Below, piece by piece: positions 9,621 to 62,778 of a stretch of 63,293 nt of DNA. The position numbers and the translations under genes are program-made. The stretch covers positions 1 to 63,293 of the forward strand of contig CAYHBR010000004.1 in the NCBI GenBank assembly GCA_964354985.1, read 5' to 3'. This stretch comes from an uncultured Candidatus Saccharibacteria bacterium. GTDB taxonomy: Bacteria > Patescibacteriota > Minisyncoccia > Phycocordibacterales > UBA9973. The notes beneath the pieces were generated by a model. The model had not been told where the DNA came from. It ran no database searches and worked only from the letters and a program-made list of their open reading frames with translations. Numbering within the stretch: position 1 is the first letter of the stretch; each line of letters opens with the position of its first letter.

Positions 9621-9837
9621 AGTCTAAAGCCTTCGCCGTGTATATAAAACACGACACTAAGGCATAAAATTCTTGTAAAATGCTTGATTCTGTTTTTTGG
9701 ACAAAATCAGCGTGCCCCGTTTCGGACCTAAGCGCTGGGGTTTTCAGTACCCCCGCGAACGTGACTTGGTTACTTTAAAGGAAAACTGGCAATTTGGCAA
9801 GAGCTTGTGTAATTAATTATTATGATAAAATATCGAG

Positions 9838-10323
9838 ATGGAATTTTCAGTAGAAAAATTCAATAAAGTAAAACATGAGGCGGAAGATTTCTATTCAAAG
9901 ATTATCTCTGTGCGTTGTCCGTATTTTGAAGAAAATGTGCATTTCAATGCTAAGGGCTTAGAACATTTAATCTTTAAAGAATGGAACAAAACCCGTCTTA
10001 TCGCTGATCAATTCATTAGATTTAAATACTTAAATCTTGCTCCGGAAGTTATTAGCCACTCAAAAACACTTCAGGGCATTTGGATGACGCAGAAATTTGA
10101 AAGGATTAAAAAGAAAAGTGGGTGGCAAAAAGTTCTTAAACTAACAACTTTCTACGAATTCATTGCGATAATGGAAATACCTAATGCAAAAATACGTATT
10201 AAAATAATCGTGAAGCAAGTAGAGGGTGGCGAAAAATATTTCCTTAGTATTATTCCTTATTGGGGAACAAATAAAATTAATGGCGAGCGAATATTATTTA
10301 GTGGTAACCCAGAGAATGACTAA
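9838..10323 (+). CDS. hypothetical protein
   Basis: 161-aa ORF with an ATG start, followed by the hairpin cccgcc-taat-ggcggg (10335-10350). Confidence 0.45.
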   Translation: MEFSVEKFNKVKHEAEDFYSKIISVRCPYFEENVHFNAKGLEHLIFKEWNKTRLIADQFIRFKYLNLAPEVISHSKTLQGIWMTQKFERIKKKSGWQKVLKLTTFYEFIAIMEIPNAKIRIKIIVKQVEGGEKYFLSIIPYWGTNKINGERILFSGNPEND

Positions 10324-58392: not shown

Positions 58393-58461
58393 GAGTCTAT
58401 TATAACCGCAATATGTAAATGATAAAAATAAAAACACGGGATTAATCGTGTTTTTATTTTG

Positions 58462-58747
58462 CTTTGTGCAGTAATTCTATCATTTGCGCGAACTTATTTC
58501 AAAGTAGATAAGTAGCGTTCCCCGCGCGCTACGCGCCTCTGTGCTTCGCACAGAGCTTCTGCTGAAGCAGAAGTGCGGGGAAACGCTCTGCACACCACCA
58601 CAATGTTTTAAAAAGGATGTGGTGTGCAGAAATGCAAATGCGGAACGCGAGCGAAATTTTGCGAAATGCTGGGGGTGTGGGGGAAAGTATTTCGCAAAAT
58701 TCGCTTCGCGTGCTTCGGCATTTCTTTTTTTGGCGGGGCGGACAACT
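58462..58747 (+). repeat. inverted repeat R, left copy (hairpin-rich, relatively GC-rich)
   Basis: It is the reverse complement of 60749-61040. The copies are near-identical over 58462-58716 versus 61040-60786, then an indel-rich patch, then tggcggggcgg[a/g]caact. Confidence 0.95.
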
Positions 58748-58785
58748 AGAAAAAATACTCCAAAAAAAACAAAAATGTTTTTGAA

Positions 58786-58818
58786 AACATAAAAGCACCT
58801 TTAAGGTGCTTTTATGTT
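58786..58818 (-). terminator. terminator hairpin after 58845..59987
   Basis: aacataaaagcacc-tttaa-ggtgcttttatgtt. Confidence 0.7.
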
Positions 58819-58844
58819 GAACATATATTCTAGAAATCTGACAA

Positions 58845-59987
58845 TTAGTTAAATTTGAAAGTTTTTAGTAATTGCTCAAACTTAGCGATTTCTGCGACAT
58901 CACCATTGCCGAGGGGTGTGCTAAATTTAAAATAAAGTGAATGTGTCTGATCCTTATGCATGAAGAAAACATACATATCATGAGAAGGAATAACTGTGTG
59001 TCCCGCATGTTCGCCTCCACTGACAGTGGCAGTATTTCTCATTTCTCCCACAATCGCTGTCTGTCCTCCAACCGTTATTGTTTTTTTAGTCTGCGCAAAA
59101 ATATCTGAGGAATTATTATACCTTGAGAGTTCATCGCTGTAGACAGCACTTCCCATCGTGTAACATTCAATATGCATACTATCTTTTGGCGCATAAATCT
59201 GGTTATTGCTTCCATCGTGCGTCTCGATTCCTTGTGAAGCAGTGTCGATAAAATCAATCATTCTGCTCATGATAGTGCCTTGTAGGTTAATGGCATTTGA
59301 CTCATTGCCAGCTGACCAAGAATCTGGATATTGGAAAGTATATCCACATCCTGTATTGGTATATGTTTTCCAATTGGCAGTAGAAATTTGGGGAGCATTG
59401 ATCGTAAATTTATTATCAGAAATATCGCTTGGAATATTTGGACCCCCAACGGCAGGCCAAATAGCAACATAAAAATTATTTCCGTAATACACAGGATTAC
59501 CACTATCCCATTCACTTGCATCGTCCGTTGGAAGTGTTACAACAGCCGAACCATTATTTAATGCCGTTTTTGTTAGGACATGTTCCTCTCCGCCCATTCC
59601 GCCAGGACTTTTATATCGGACATCAATTTGTAAAAGTGTATTTGCAGACAAATTACAACTCTTCCATTTAACTGTAATTTTTTGACTAGCTGTATAAACT
59701 TCTCCACCATTCGGTGAAAGAACCGTTATTGAAGGATTACATGTTGGTGTAGGAGGAGGCGTTTGCTGTTGTGGCGGATTATTAGCAGGCGGAGGAGTTT
59801 GGGCAGGAGGATTATTATTTGTCGTCGGCGGAGTATAATTCTGTTCAGTTGTCGGAAAATAATTATCACTCACCGTATTTTTCGGAGTAGAACTTTTTCC
59901 CGCAAAGTAAGCAACTCCGCCGACCGCTAAAACTCCAAGAACTATTAGTAAAACTACGACTGGTGCAAAACCTTTATTGTATTTCAT
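58845..59987 (-). CDS. membrane-anchored secreted protein with a Pro-rich linker and an SPNGGE-type domain (paralogue of 46313..47296)
   Basis: MKYNKGFAPVVVLLIVLGVLAVGGVAYF anchor, PPTTNNNPPAQTPPPANNPPQQQTPPPTP linker, then ITVLSPNGGEVYTASQKITVKWKSCN. Confidence 0.65.
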   Translation of the reverse strand: MKYNKGFAPVVVLLIVLGVLAVGGVAYFAGKSSTPKNTVSDNYFPTTEQNYTPPTTNNNPPAQTPPPANNPPQQQTPPPTPTCNPSITVLSPNGGEVYTASQKITVKWKSCNLSANTLLQIDVRYKSPGGMGGEEHVLTKTALNNGSAVVTLPTDDASEWDSGNPVYYGNNFYVAIWPAVGGPNIPSDISDNKFTINAPQISTANWKTYTNTGCGYTFQYPDSWSAGNESNAINLQGTIMSRMIDFIDTASQGIETHDGSNNQIYAPKDSMHIECYTMGSAVYSDELSRYNNSSDIFAQTKKTITVGGQTAIVGEMRNTATVSGGEHAGHTVIPSHDMYVFFMHKDQTHSLYFKFSTPLGNGDVAEIAKFEQLLKTFKFN

Positions 59988-60020
59988 AATGATTTAATCT
60001 TATCATAATTACTAGCTAGC

Positions 60021-60127
60021 AAAAAGCTCCTAGCCAGTATGATAACCTTGCGGTTACCCATACCCCTTTCGGGATATGACACGGTCTGTGCAAACTCTGA
60101 CTAGGAGTTTTTTATCACAGACCGTGT
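60021..60127 (-). ncRNA. structured 5' leader / unclassified RNA element upstream of 58845..59987
   Basis: The minus-strand RNA has a 12-bp helix ACACGGUCUGUG/CACAGACCGUGU and two adjacent GNRA-capped hairpins (CAUAUCCC-GAAA-GGGGUAUG and GGUAACC-GCAA-GGUUAUC). It also has a long-range helix CUCCUAG/CUAGGAG followed by CUUUUU. Both small hairpins have a G-U wobble on the minus strand where the plus strand would have an A-C or C-A mismatch. Confidence 0.5.
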
Positions 60128-60237
60128 TTGCGACCATGCCTTTATTTTTAAAGGTTTAGGTCTTCTATTAAGTTATGTTGCTATTATGCCAAATTTAAGG
60201 TTAAAAAGCTAATTTTTAGAAACATCTAAATTTTCGC

Positions 60238-60265
60238 TTGACTTAAATTACCTAACTGCTATACT
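60238..60265 (+). promoter_or_regulatory. near-consensus sigma70-like promoter with no downstream plus-strand ORF
   Basis: TTGACT (60238-60243), 16-nt spacer, TATACT (60260-60265). Confidence 0.5.
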
Positions 60266-60271
60266 CAATGT

Positions 60272-60325
60272 ACAAAGTGCCGTAAGGCTCCGAGAAACCC
60301 CGCCAAAAGCGGGGTTTCGAGTTTC
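60272..60325 (+). ncRNA. candidate ~50-nt small RNA convergent with the MazF-like gene
   Basis: It lies between the promoter above and the hairpin GAAACCCCGC-CAAAA-GCGGGGUUUC (60294-60318), which is followed by GAGUUUCU. It abuts the toxin stop codon (60325-60327). Confidence 0.3.
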
Positions 60326-60714
60326 TAGAGGAAAGATTTGAGTTTTTGTTTCATTTCATCAAAAAGTTCATTCGGAATATCGTAGAGCTTTCTTTTCAAT
60401 CGTTTAACACTAAGTAATTTCATTTGTGCCAAAATAGCGGAAACTTTTTGTTCGTTCGGGTCAGTGTAATTGAAATAAAAGTCAAATTCCTTTTGTTTTG
60501 TTGAAAGTGGAATAACCCAAAACATGTGATTGTTGAACTTTTTAACAATCAAGATAGGACGAGAAAAATTATCACCTGATCCGTTTTGTTCATAACCAAT
60601 ATTTTTTCCTAAACTGGACATCCACACTTCACCCTCTTTTGGAAAACGGTCAGGTTTATTTTTTTCGTCTTCAATTTTCTTTTTCAGTTCATTCCAAGAA
60701 TCAAAATCTTTCAT
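60325..60714 (-). CDS. PemK/MazF-family toxin (endoribonuclease fold), with no recognisable protein antitoxin gene
   Basis: KEGEVWMSSLGKNIGYEQNGSGDNFSRPILIVKK...VIPLSTKQK...SAILAQMKLLSVKRLKRKLYDIPNELFDEMKQKL aligns by eye with EndoA/MazF ([27 protein letters not shown]...SVILLEQIRTIDKQRL...DDEMMDKVDEAL). Confidence 0.78.
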   Translation of the reverse strand: MKDFDSWNELKKKIEDEKNKPDRFPKEGEVWMSSLGKNIGYEQNGSGDNFSRPILIVKKFNNHMFWVIPLSTKQKEFDFYFNYTDPNEQKVSAILAQMKLLSVKRLKRKLYDIPNELFDEMKQKLKSFL

Positions 60715-60748
60715 AGAAAGATTTTACCATTTTGAGTTTCTTTCTTCC

Positions 60749-61040
60749 AGTTGCCCGCCCCGCCAAAATCCCGCCAAAAAATCAGGAAGCACGCGAAGCG
60801 AATTTTGCGAAATACTTTCCCCCACACCCCCAGCATTTCGCAAAATTTCGCTCGCGTTCCGCATTTGTATTTCTGCACACCACATCCTTTTTTAAACATT
60901 GTGTGGTGTGCAGAGCGTTTCCCCGCACTTCTGCTTCAGCAGAAGCTCTGTGCTTCGCACAGAGGCGCTTCAGCGCGCGGGGAACGCTACTTATCTACTT
61001 TGAAATAAGTTCGCGCAAATGATAGAATTACTGCACAAAG
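60749..61040 (-). repeat. inverted repeat R, right copy
   Basis: Reverse complement of 58462-58747, including the 8-mer as gcacaaag at 61033-61040. Confidence 0.95.
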
Positions 61041-61163
61041 AGAGACGTTCGCGAAATTAGAAATGTGGAGCGGATTTTTGGGAAAAAAATCCGCACTGTG
61101 TGTCCCGACGCTAGCCTTGCTAGCGCGGACGAAATCCCAAAGTTCCCCCCAGCGTATGGAAAC
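61033..61163 (-). repeat. inverted repeat P, left copy (131 bp including the 8-mer; contains the recombinase 5' UTR and start codon)
   Basis: Checked base by base: it is the exact reverse complement of 62569-62699. Confidence 0.97.
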
Positions 61164-62715
61164 AATTCAAACCAAAACTAAATGTGTTCTCTATGCGAGA
61201 AAATCTACTGAAGAGGACGATAAGCAGGTGATGAGCATTGAAGCTCAATTGTTTGAGTTGCAAGAATATGCGCATAGAGAACGCATTGAAATTGTGAAAG
61301 TATTCACAGAAGCGAAAAGCGCAAAGAAGCCCGGGCGAGACGGTTTTGCGAAAATGATAAATTTTATTGAAACCTCAAAAGAACAGATTGGCATACTTTC
61401 TTGGCACCCCGACCGTCTCGCTCGGAATTCTGTTGATGGTGGAAAAATAATTTACTTGGTAGACATCAACAGAATTGCTTCTTTACGCTTTCCGCAGTTT
61501 TGGTTTGAGCCAACTCCGCAAGGCAAATTTATGTTGCAAGTGGCGTTCGGACAAAGTAAATATTTTTCTGACAACCTCGTGGAAAATGTGAAGCGTGGAA
61601 TCCGCCAAAAAATCCGCCGTGGGGAGTGGTTAACGCTCGCACCAATGGGATATGTGAATAACTACAAAACGAAGAATATCGAACCTCATGCTGTGTATTC
61701 CAAAGTTATCAAGCGAGCGTTCACTGCATATGCCACAGGAAAATATACCCTCATCGGACTGGCGGATTTTTTGGCGGATCACGGATTATGTCAGAAAAAA
61801 GGTACGCCACTTGCCAAATGTTCCGTCGTGAAAATGTTGACCAACAGAGCATATCTCGGATTTATCAAACATCGTGGTGAATGGCACGACGGAACATTTG
61901 AGCCGATTCTTTCCCCGACACTGTTTGAAGCAGTACAAAAAATTCTTTCGGCGAGGAGAAGACCATATCATTCTAAACTTCGTCATCCATTTCCATTTAC
62001 CCAGTTTATGACCTGTGGTGAGTGTGGCTGTGCGATTACCGCTCAATATGCCACCAACCGCTATGGTGTCATCTACACTTACTATCGTTGCACCAAAAAG
62101 AACGGAGTGTGCGCACAGCCATACATACAACAAAATCTTCTCGCCGAAAAACTCGAAACACTGCTTCAATCAGTGTCGCTTCCCCGTGAAGAAATTGAAA
62201 ATATGGAAAGGCAAATTTCTGCGTGGGAAAGTGAATCAATTTCTTCACGGGGAAGTGTTGCCCAAAATCTTAAAACTAAACTTTCCGAGACGAAGGAGAA
62301 GCTAGACAAACTGATATCACTGTATCTCGATGGCGACATTGAACGCGAAATATATTTGGAACGAAAAGACCTTCTCCTTCGTCAGAAAGCAAAGGCAGAG
62401 GAAAGTTTTAGAGATTTTGGACAACAGGGAAAGAATCGGCTCGAACCCTTGCGGAGTTTCGTTTTGTCCTTAAGAGAAGCCATGGAATTAGAAAAAACTT
62501 CCAATCATCTCGAATGGAAGAAGTTTTTCCAAAGTATCGGCTCTAACCCCTCTCTCAAGGACAAAACGGTTTCCATACGCTGGGGGGAACTTTGGGATTT
62601 CGTCCGCGCTAGCAAGGCTAGCGTCGGGACACACAGTGCGGATTTTTTTCCCAAAAATCCGCTCCACATTTCTAATTTCGCGAACGTCTCTCTTTGTGCC
62701 CAGGAGAGGACTTGA
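61156..62715 (+). CDS. large serine recombinase
   Basis: METIQTKTKCVLYARKSTEEDDKQVMSIEAQ contains the catalytic Ser in YARKST. Also present: a resolvase domain (GILSWHPDRLARN), a recombinase domain, a zinc ribbon CGECGCAITAQ...YYRCTKKNGVC and a coiled-coil tail. ATG at 61156 is preferred to the upstream start at 61063. The last ~44 codons lie in repeat P, and the stop (62713-62715) lies antisense inside tRNA-Leu. Confidence 0.9.
   Translation: METIQTKTKCVLYARKSTEEDDKQVMSIEAQLFELQEYAHRERIEIVKVFTEAKSAKKPGRDGFAKMINFIETSKEQIGILSWHPDRLARNSVDGGKIIYLVDINRIASLRFPQFWFEPTPQGKFMLQVAFGQSKYFSDNLVENVKRGIRQKIRRGEWLTLAPMGYVNNYKTKNIEPHAVYSKVIKRAFTAYATGKYTLIGLADFLADHGLCQKKGTPLAKCSVVKMLTNRAYLGFIKHRGEWHDGTFEPILSPTLFEAVQKILSARRRPYHSKLRHPFPFTQFMTCGECGCAITAQYATNRYGVIYTYYRCTKKNGVCAQPYIQQNLLAEKLETLLQSVSLPREEIENMERQISAWESESISSRGSVAQNLKTKLSETKEKLDKLISLYLDGDIEREIYLERKDLLLRQKAKAEESFRDFGQQGKNRLEPLRSFVLSLREAMELEKTSNHLEWKKFFQSIGSNPSLKDKTVSIRWGELWDFVRASKASVGTHSADFFPKNPLHISNFANVSLCAQERT
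62569..62699 (+). repeat. inverted repeat P, right copy
   Basis: Exact reverse complement of 61033-61163. It ends with ctttgtgc, whose last 3 nt are the 3' end of tRNA-Leu. Confidence 0.97.
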
Positions 62716-62778
62716 ACCTCCACGGATTGCTCCACACGAACCTCAATCGTGCGTGGTTACCAGTTACACCACCTGGGC
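62697..62778 (-). tRNA. trnL: tRNA-Leu (anticodon GAG), type II with long variable arm, no encoded CCA
   Basis: Hand-folded. Acceptor GCCCAGG/CCUGGGC plus A73. 3-bp D stem GUG/CAC. Anticodon stem CACGA/UCGUG with loop UUGAGGU. Long variable arm. T arm GGAGG-UUCAAGU-CCUCU. Confidence 0.9.

Follow-up and report, generated by a model that had tools for sequence, protein, structure and literature searches.

The stretch of DNA analysed here, called the window, is a whole contig of 63,293 bp (CAYHBR010000004.1) from an uncultured Candidatus Saccharibacteria bacterium whose genome assembly amounts to 706 kb in 23 contigs. Towards its right end, a gene for a large serine recombinase (LSR) is bracketed by two inverted copies of a 131-bp repeat, P. 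Our conclusion is that P is probably the recombinase-side arm of an attachment (att) site, and that it belongs to an integrative element of about 4.2 kb (58470-62691) that was inserted by the LSR at the 3' end of a tRNA-Leu(gag) gene and contains a second, inverted attP. A preliminary description, made from the sequence alone, had raised an inversion of the segment between the copies; the junctions described below show P not as a free-standing inversion switch but as part of an integrated element with an attL, an inverted attP and an attR. The repeat would occur twice because this element, like the whole of its widespread family in the Patescibacteria (ultra-small CPR bacteria), carries a second complete attP (R'/core/P'), in inverted orientation, before the LSR gene.

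Probable attachment-site junctions at a tRNA-Leu gene

One 8-mer core is found at three junctions, and each time it joins a different pair of arms: X/R, P/R in inverted orientation, and P/tRNA. The features involved are the following:

58425..58460, minus strand: X arm, a bidirectional terminator hairpin; chromosomal left flank of the insert, originally after tRNA-Leu
58462: junction X/R, ...tattttg CTTTGTGC agtaattc, attL-type
58462..58469, plus strand: core copy A, CTTTGTGC, in X/R; the same 8-mer as copies B and C
58462..58766, plus strand: R, left copy, the hairpin-rich cargo-side arm region; pairs with 60730-61040, about 93% identical overall
60730..61040, minus strand: R', right copy; its outer 30 nt (GTTCGCGCAAATGATAGAATTACT) are the conserved arm beside the core
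61033: junction P/R, inverted on the plus strand, gaacgtctct CTTTGTGC agtaattc, complete inverted attP-type
61033..61040, minus strand: core copy B (GCACAAAG on the plus strand), the centre of R'/P', common to the R and P repeats
61033..61163, plus strand: P', left copy of the 131-bp repeat; recombinase 5' leader with two hairpins and the start codon
61156..62715, plus strand: LSR gene, 519 aa; the open reading frame (ORF) passes the crossover point and its stop (62713-62715) lies in antisense tRNA-Leu
62569..62699, plus strand: P, right copy; element-side arm of attR, encoding LSR residues 472-515
62692: junction P/tRNA, gaacgtctct CTTTGTGC ccaggagagg, attR-type
62692..62699, plus strand: core copy C, in P/tRNA, the attR-type junction
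62696..62778, minus strand: tRNA-Leu(gag), the target gene (ARAGORN and Rfam); the element supplies its last 4 nt

The P pair and the R pair of inverted repeats overlap by 8 nt, which are the core, and a dyad (TTCGCG...TCGCGAA) is centred on core copy B. When X is joined to the tRNA gene, a tRNA-plus-terminator site is rebuilt, which would be attB. In four genomes of the same genus (G001, G003, G005 and G006), the neighbour gene, the same terminator hairpin, tRNA-Leu(gag) and rplS are found with no insert. The distance between the X hairpin and the tRNA-Leu(gag) 3' end is 0-35 nt in these relatives, and in G001 CTTGTGC and the tRNA come directly after the hairpin. Because the order is uninterrupted in these genomes, the segment 58470-62691 is an insertion of about 4.2 kb. 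At the sequence level, the grammar of an attP x attB reaction is thus present, with a short shared core and an empty attB.

Related elements were examined in homologous LSR loci fetched from species-representative genomes (n = 80), and the repeats bracketing the LSR gene were tabulated in 67 of them. An inverted repeat of 100-140 bp brackets the gene in 60 of the 67 tabulated loci, and most of those that lack it have less than 200 nt of contig on one side. The full layout, X/R-cargo-R'/P'-LSR-P/tRNA, was detected in at least 15 loci, with R pairs of 150-370 bp that are 96-100% identical and with a terminator-like hairpin as X. The same layout stands at 7 of the 8 element sites in a set of complete or near-complete genomes (the single-contig G117, G133 and G071, plus G176). 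When flanks and orientation were read in about 45 fetched loci, the right arm was found to abut the 3' end of an opposite-strand tRNA gene in about 43, and the tRNAs concerned are Leu, Glu, Ala, Phe and Arg. The outer end of P resembles the end of a tRNA (NCACCA...), and a conserved arm, AAAAAGTTCGnGCAAAnnnTAnAATnAnn, precedes the left P arm in nearly all related loci. All arm types share a TTCG(n)GAA/TCGAAC-like motif whose counterpart in the tRNA is the T-arm; judging from the sequences, this shared motif may explain the range of tRNA targets. Among 201 sampled genomes of the host order, the LSR was found in 64, with one to six copies each.

Two loci bear on the second attP. In both, the LSR module has a tRNA gene on either side, the two genes being inverted relative to each other: Leu-caa and Leu-gag in one case (L025, 6798-8622), two copies of tRNA-Ala-tgc in the other (L064, 183-2000). 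This arrangement is the product expected from a reaction between the inner attP and a second attB, and it implies a chromosomal inversion. The spare attP is therefore a working site on an evolutionary time scale.

The genome to which the window belongs holds a second element, inserted at a tRNA-Val gene. It has the same layout and is split over contigs C22 (locus L023), C23 and C19 (L024). Its order is R, a 169-aa ORF, a 291-aa ORF (unannotated), R' and an LSR that is 45% identical; the P-side junctions are with R' (C22, around position 2066) and with the 3' end of tRNA-Val (C23, 1443-1517). A third R-flanked cassette, on C19, contains a 599-aa ORF and adjoins tRNA-Arg. The assembly breaks at these element repeats. 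The inner part of R in the window (58530-58730 and 60770-60970) is multi-hairpin sequence with about sixfold metagenome depth; it is common to the C19 and C22 cassettes at 83-95% identity, and the 50 nt beside the core differ between cassettes. Elsewhere in the family, a group I intron match (Rfam, 55 bits) was detected at 9758-10040 on the minus strand of L054, about 1.2 kb past the target tRNA-Ala of a related element.

Repeat P and the recombinase reading frame

The two copies of P were located with a repeat finder and recomputed by script: 61033-61163 is the exact reverse complement of 62569-62699 (131 nt, 100% identity, 1405 nt apart), and no further copy is found in the genome. Depth was read from assembled (Logan) contigs of three public sequencing runs, in which the 131-nt repeat forms a contig of its own, about twice as deep as the flanking sequence (84 vs 40, 65 vs 32 and 7 vs 4-5). 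Hence, two copies are present in the sequenced DNA. The anatomy of P given in the preliminary description was borne out. The inner 8 nt of the left copy, ATGGAAAC, contain the LSR start codon and open the 519-aa ORF (61156-62715), while the right copy opens a 23-codon ORF, METVLSLREGLEPILWKNFFHSR, on the opposite strand. The length of 519 aa is counted from the ATG chosen in the preliminary description. The recombinase frame traverses the right copy (VSIRWGELWDF...VSLCAQERT) and stops 16 nt beyond it, in the tRNA-Leu(gag) gene. Both internal hairpins are present, with an RNA fold of -39 kcal/mol (z = -2.2). The geometry of the hypothetical inversion is as claimed, and the P/R junction would then give the altered tail ...VSLCAVILSFARTYFKVDK.

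Among the loci compared, the hairpins of P retain their pairing despite many double changes, and compensatory changes are seen in 6 of the 7 pairs of the first hairpin. The counts of G-U and A-C are equal across loci and so favour neither strand of the hairpins, nor a role as DNA over one as RNA.

The 519-aa protein is identified as a large serine recombinase by its domains: Resolvase (PF00239, residues 11-158, E = 1.2e-22), Recombinase (PF07508, residues 182-267) and Zn-ribbon (PF13408, residues 280-331). Residues R15, K16, S17 and T18 are invariant in 26 homologues, and long helices are predicted at 326-446 (AlphaFold, modest confidence). Distant matches are found with the integrases of SPbeta and A118; the alignment with SPbeta YokA spans residues 10-432 and is weak (E ~1e-6). 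Homologues at E < 1e-20 number more than 6000. The best 120 are 58-87% identical, and those among them with a named source come from Parcubacteria/Paceibacteria-type genomes.

The reading frame across the right arm was examined in 38 loci. The LSR frame is open in all 38, compared with 17 and 5 for the other two frames; the stop therefore always lies past the crossover point. The preliminary description had allowed that homologues might lack a flanking inverted repeat and end before the P-encoded tail. What is found is the opposite, as the flanking repeat is retained in the great majority of tabulated loci (60/67) and the tail frame is open in every locus examined (38/38). In homologues called from upstream starts, leader and tail peptides co-vary as reverse complements (KSQSSPQR with SIRWGELWDF, ...QC with SIHW..., KSHKSP with WGDLWDF). 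Codon periodicity is strong only in the 30 nt beside the ATG, which encode WGELWDF (column entropies 0.52, 0.42 and 0.98), and is weak elsewhere in P. The AlphaFold model gives a pLDDT of 30-38 for residues 462-519; the whole model is poor (mean 62), which makes it weak evidence on the tail. To the question whether the tail is conserved protein or mere read-through, the answer is that it is both: about 11 residues form a conserved motif, and the other 33 or so vary yet are free of stops. The same DNA encodes this motif and forms the stretch that immediately precedes the start codon.

The endings of the LSR were surveyed in 120 homologues. Their tails are either antisense-tRNA peptides (..CAQERT, ..GDPTGNRT..ALYQLS) or, in about 15 cases, R-arm peptides (..IIHFARTFFE.., ..VSIVPNSHLFPKQ..). 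All the R-reading tails that were traced belong to tandem arrays (L132, L134, L136, L139 and L142-146), where the R arm that comes after the LSR module is that of the next element and differs in sequence. A separate proposal, that the ORF would be endless in a circle made of the LSR module only, is unsupported: in the window no stop interrupts the leader in this frame, yet the same holds for only 21 of the 38 loci.

A candidate promoter for the LSR gene was found by consensus scan:

61000..61028, plus strand: predicted promoter-like site, TTGAAA-17-TAGAAT with TG upstream; faces across the core into P' and the LSR gene

A mirror promoter-like site in the left R copy (58502-58474, minus strand) faces outward. 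In nearly all loci the sequence TGnTAnAAT is found at a distance of 4-5 nt from the core, and an LSR-type motif, GTTCGnGCAAA, lies in the spacer. The preliminary description had proposed that inversion would re-attach the gene to an identical copy of both promoter and ATG. This would hold for the ATG only: the promoter-like site lies in R', outside P, and the right P copy therefore brings no identical promoter. After a flip, the LSR gene would sit behind the tRNA gene. The sequence most likely indicates a promoter outside P, a transcription start near the core, and a leader of about 120 nt provided by P'. Because the predicted promoter overlaps the recombinase's own binding motif, autoregulation by the LSR, in the form of autorepression, is plausible.

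The mechanism that we propose runs as follows. The LSR of the element would insert it at the 3' end of tRNA-Leu(gag), whereupon the right P copy and the tRNA would form attR and the left P copy would become the 5' leader of the LSR gene. Transcription would most likely start at the core, from the promoter in the R' arm. The LSR ORF, which lacks a stop of its own, would run antisense across P and the crossover point; as it passes that point, its last residues would be set by whatever sequence lies beyond. That sequence would be the tRNA when the element is last in line, and an R arm in three other situations: in a tandem array, where it belongs to the next element, in a copy that has flipped, and in the free circular form. 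The P copies would be kept near-identical most likely by gene conversion between arms, rather than by routine flipping of the gene. The spare attP would remain competent for recombination over evolutionary time, and would be the site joined to a second tRNA gene in some genomes.

A bolder speculation, which we consider improbable, is that the exchangeable C-terminus is a state sensor. It would tell an element that is last in line (tRNA end) from a circle or an internal member of an array (R end), and the tail, together with binding of the enzyme to the spare attP, which overlaps the enzyme's own promoter, would set direction and expression without a recombination directionality factor (RDF). 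The spare attP would then allow docking at two tRNA genes or an isomerisation of the kind known from the yeast 2-micron plasmid. On this view the tail would come just after the coiled-coil, which in LSRs governs directionality.

Orientation, arm identity and competing explanations

Identity between the P arms of the same locus was computed for 62 loci. The median is 99.1%, with 24 of the 62 pairs perfect, vs a median of 61.8% between loci. The perfect identity in the window had been read as a sign of ongoing inversion or gene conversion; concerted evolution is indeed supported by these figures, while routine inversion is made unlikely by orientation (more than 50 standard vs 2 flipped). The LSR reads towards the tRNA in about 43 of the 45 or so fetched loci and at 7 of the 8 sites of the complete or near-complete genomes. 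The only flipped loci are L052 and L133, with the order tRNA(+)/P'-LSR-P/R and with arms that are 92% and 81% identical. Frequent flipping is unlikely because the orientation is so strongly biased, and we conclude that flips are rare events. Homogenisation of the arms is most likely a separate process at the DNA level, namely gene conversion.

The mismatches between arms resemble neutral DNA changes and show no wobble bias. Selection for a 5'-3' panhandle in the mRNA is unsupported, as changes compatible with G-U pairing are not favoured among the mismatches (34 vs 49, plus 58 transversions). A conversion-tract gradient starting from the core was also considered and is not general: the R pair of the window shows it, but R repeats at other loci break off abruptly.

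A difference in cargo orientation was detected between L136 and L137, two loci from two JGI samples with an identical LSR (P0052). A 5.5-kb cargo module stands in opposite directions relative to the LSR, and the loci are otherwise 99.9% identical. The module contains an HTH gene, SocA_Panacea, a 780-aa ORF and others, and is bounded by 234-bp inverted repeats. Two explanations are admitted: either the inversion polymorphism is real, or the assembler made a choice across the 234-bp repeat.

The observations on orientation bear directly on the idea of a self-inverting switch, in which the LSR or RecA would regularly flip the 1405-bp segment, toggling the gene between the R' promoter and the tRNA side and changing its C-terminus. 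The geometry permits it, and only the last residues would change. Both arms retain leader features and an ATG, as if each served in turn; L052 and L133 are naturally flipped; the cargo module of L136 and L137 is seen in both orientations beside an identical LSR; and the tandem arrays hint at relaxed site selectivity. We regard such a switch as unlikely, however. Orientation favours one state by about 50:2, closed genomes included, and arm decay is greatest in the two flipped loci, as if they had been stranded. A conservative crossover at the core would do nothing to make the arms alike, and the case of L136 and L137 is possibly an assembler ambiguity. Moreover, the reaction would be attP x attR, which the characterised LSRs (phiC31, Bxb1, A118) avoid. 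Another explanation places the selected function in a free circle of 4.2 kb with two inverted P+R repeats of about 430 bp. Such a two-attP vector would isomerise, integrate through either attP or dock to two tRNAs, and the chromosomal repeat would be one copy split by integration. Excision by attL x attR would yield exactly this circle; the internal site makes up a whole attP, whose two arms are conserved across the family; the inner attP is joined to a second tRNA in L025 and L064; and the flipped loci match integration through the other attP. Against it, neither a circular contig nor an own P/R junction was found among the fetched loci, equal use of the two attP sites predicts about 50% flipped integrants rather than the 4% or so observed, LSRs do not normally recombine attP x attP, and the cargo of this element has no replication gene. 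We rate the vector as possible, if doubtful.

The arms might also aid the uptake of single-stranded DNA by natural transformation: P:P' and R:R' pairing would restore an attP in duplex form, with no need to synthesise the second strand. Since the two repeat pairs lie side by side and have the core in common, the stems would stack as a continuous R'/P' duplex, and formation of the stems needs the perfect arm identity that is seen. The LSR gene, however, would stay single-stranded and unexpressed, the arm mismatches show no pairing-preserving bias, and the substrate of serine recombinases is a DNA duplex in which neither strand is broken, all of which makes this fold-back role very improbable. 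An assembly artefact, produced by a chimeric join or a fold-back close to the end of the contig, could be suspected because the repeat lies about 600 nt from that end and many related contigs break at the repeat. It is refuted, as the contig runs on through tRNA-Leu into rplS in synteny with relatives, the repeat has double depth in three runs, the same structure recurs in closed genomes and across about 60 independent assemblies, and leader and tail peptides of homologues co-vary.

Two simpler classes of element do not match the data. The notion that P'-LSR-P and R-cargo-R' excise as separate circles was rejected: conservative recombination only inverts each module, and neither can be excised as a unit because the cores at its two ends are inverted. 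The arrays fit tandem copies of the whole unit. An insertion sequence or transposon with terminal inverted repeats does not fit either, as P'-LSR-P is flanked by the R' arm and the tRNA and not by a duplicated target.

Several points weigh against an integrative element with a second inverted attP. Recombination was not directly seen; in this population, neither a circular junction nor an empty site nor the other orientation of this element turned up among the assembled contigs, in which a 131-bp repeat is beyond resolution. Promoter, autoregulation and gene conversion as the mechanism are all things that we infer. Simple conversion tracts do not predict abrupt ends, whereas the R repeats stop abruptly and show no decay with distance from the core; in addition, the divergence of the P pair and that of the R pair are uncorrelated across loci. 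Tandem arrays demand a reaction of the attP x attR type, shunned by canonical LSRs, or some other route, and an enzyme permissive enough to build arrays could also flip its own gene. Finally, a domain search recognised no RDF among the cargo ORFs, RDFs being proteins without a common sequence family.

Cargo and comparison with known systems

The following features were found between the two R copies:

58845..59987, minus strand: cargo ORF, 380 aa, with an N-terminal hydrophobic segment; no Pfam match
60041..60162, minus strand: LOOT RNA motif (Rfam RF03000; 88 bits, E = 1.9e-16, full-length model match)
60325..60714, minus strand: PemK/MazF-like toxin, 129 aa (PF02452, E = 1.3e-9)

A domain search of these ORFs detected no replication gene. 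The LOOT motif is placed between the PemK/MazF-like toxin gene, which is an orphan in that no antitoxin ORF is evident, and the 380-aa ORF; an RNA partner for the toxin is conceivable. The LOOT RNA was also considered as a family feature and rejected, since it is absent from the cargo of 10 other family loci. Related cargo is often of the defence type (L132, L134, L139 and L141), each time with a small HTH gene beside the R arm. Examples are a ResIII helicase with an N6/N4 methylase and AAA_15, a methylase with a SwaI-like nuclease, MutH with a methylase and AAA_15, and type IIG-like methylases.

If the interpretation proposed here is true, about one third of the genomes in this order of Patescibacteria (64/201) carry small, LSR-driven cargo shuttles, which use the universal tRNA 3' end and T-arm as a landing pad and transport toxin, restriction-modification and other accessory cassettes. 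Such shuttles would be a major route of gene flow, apparently undescribed so far, for bacteria whose genomes are tiny and in which few mobile elements are known. An inverted attP that doubles as promoter region, identical arms and an ORF ending past the crossover could reveal a new kind of serine-integrase control. Serine integrases are, besides, common tools in genome engineering, and a family with many tRNA targets would supply new pairs of att sites and enzymes.

The closest relatives by design are the LSR integrases of phages and islands (phiC31, Bxb1, A118/LI, SPbeta SprA/YokA). They share the resolvase, recombinase and zinc-ribbon/coiled-coil architecture as well as the grammar of attP (P/R), attB (X/tRNA), attL and attR, in which the sites have a short core in common and dyad motifs lie at some 22 bp from the centre. 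Unlike them, the family described here targets the 3' end of almost any tRNA gene and keeps a second, inverted and complete attP inside the element. Its LSR ORF has no stop before the crossover point, near-identity is maintained in its arms of 131 and about 300 bp, no RDF was recognised in the element, and its similarity to solved LSRs is weak (E ~1e-6).

A serine recombinase gene between inverted copies of a site presumably bound by the enzyme is also found in the Hin/Gin/Cin/Pin invertases. These proteins are about 190 aa long and end in a helix-turn-helix domain, their sites measure 26 bp, a Fis enhancer belongs to the system, and both orientations coexist; the Salmonella hin gene lies inside its own invertible segment. 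Here, in contrast, the enzyme is a 519-aa LSR, the repeats are att arms of an integrated element, and orientation is biased about 50:2. The yeast 2-micron plasmid, with FLP acting at FRT in 599-bp inverted repeats, resembles the circle predicted for this element, which would have two long identical inverted repeats with the crossover site in mid-repeat; the recombinase and the cargo would each occupy one of the two segments between the repeats. FLP is, however, a tyrosine recombinase, whereas the element encodes a serine recombinase, is seen integrated, has a circle that is only predicted, and lacks replication and partition genes. The element thus resembles both Hin and the 2-micron plasmid and fails the defining features of both.

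Integration-dependent immunity in phages of the mycobacteriophage BPs type offers another parallel. In these phages attP lies in a coding region and integration alters the C-terminus of a protein; a tyrosine integrase acts and the repressor gene is truncated. A C-terminus changed by integration is common to both systems, but here it is the recombinase's own tail that is exchanged, and any functional effect of the exchange would be hypothetical. Small cargo elements are moved by LSRs in SCCmec (Ccr), Tn4451 (TnpX) and Tn5397 (TndX), with tandem composites at one site and relaxed directionality. Those elements have neither long terminal inverted repeats nor an inverted internal att site, and their targets are orfX and GA dinucleotides; the family described here has long inverted repeats, an inverted internal att site and tRNA targets.

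The nearest ecological analogue is the tycheposons, of which 27 of 937 in Prochlorococcus use an LSR (preprint 10.1101/2020.12.28.424599). They, too, are small, carry cargo, sit at tRNA genes and build tandem arrays, whereas they belong to another host phylum and have mostly tyrosine integrases; the passages of the preprint reached by a term search make no mention of nested inverted repeats, a spare attP or an ORF crossing the att site. A literature search found no published description of this nested inverted-attP LSR layout. We consider the element a new variant of LSR integrative element, set apart by three features: a universal tRNA target, a conserved inverted attP that forms nested long repeats, and an ORF that passes its own crossover point.

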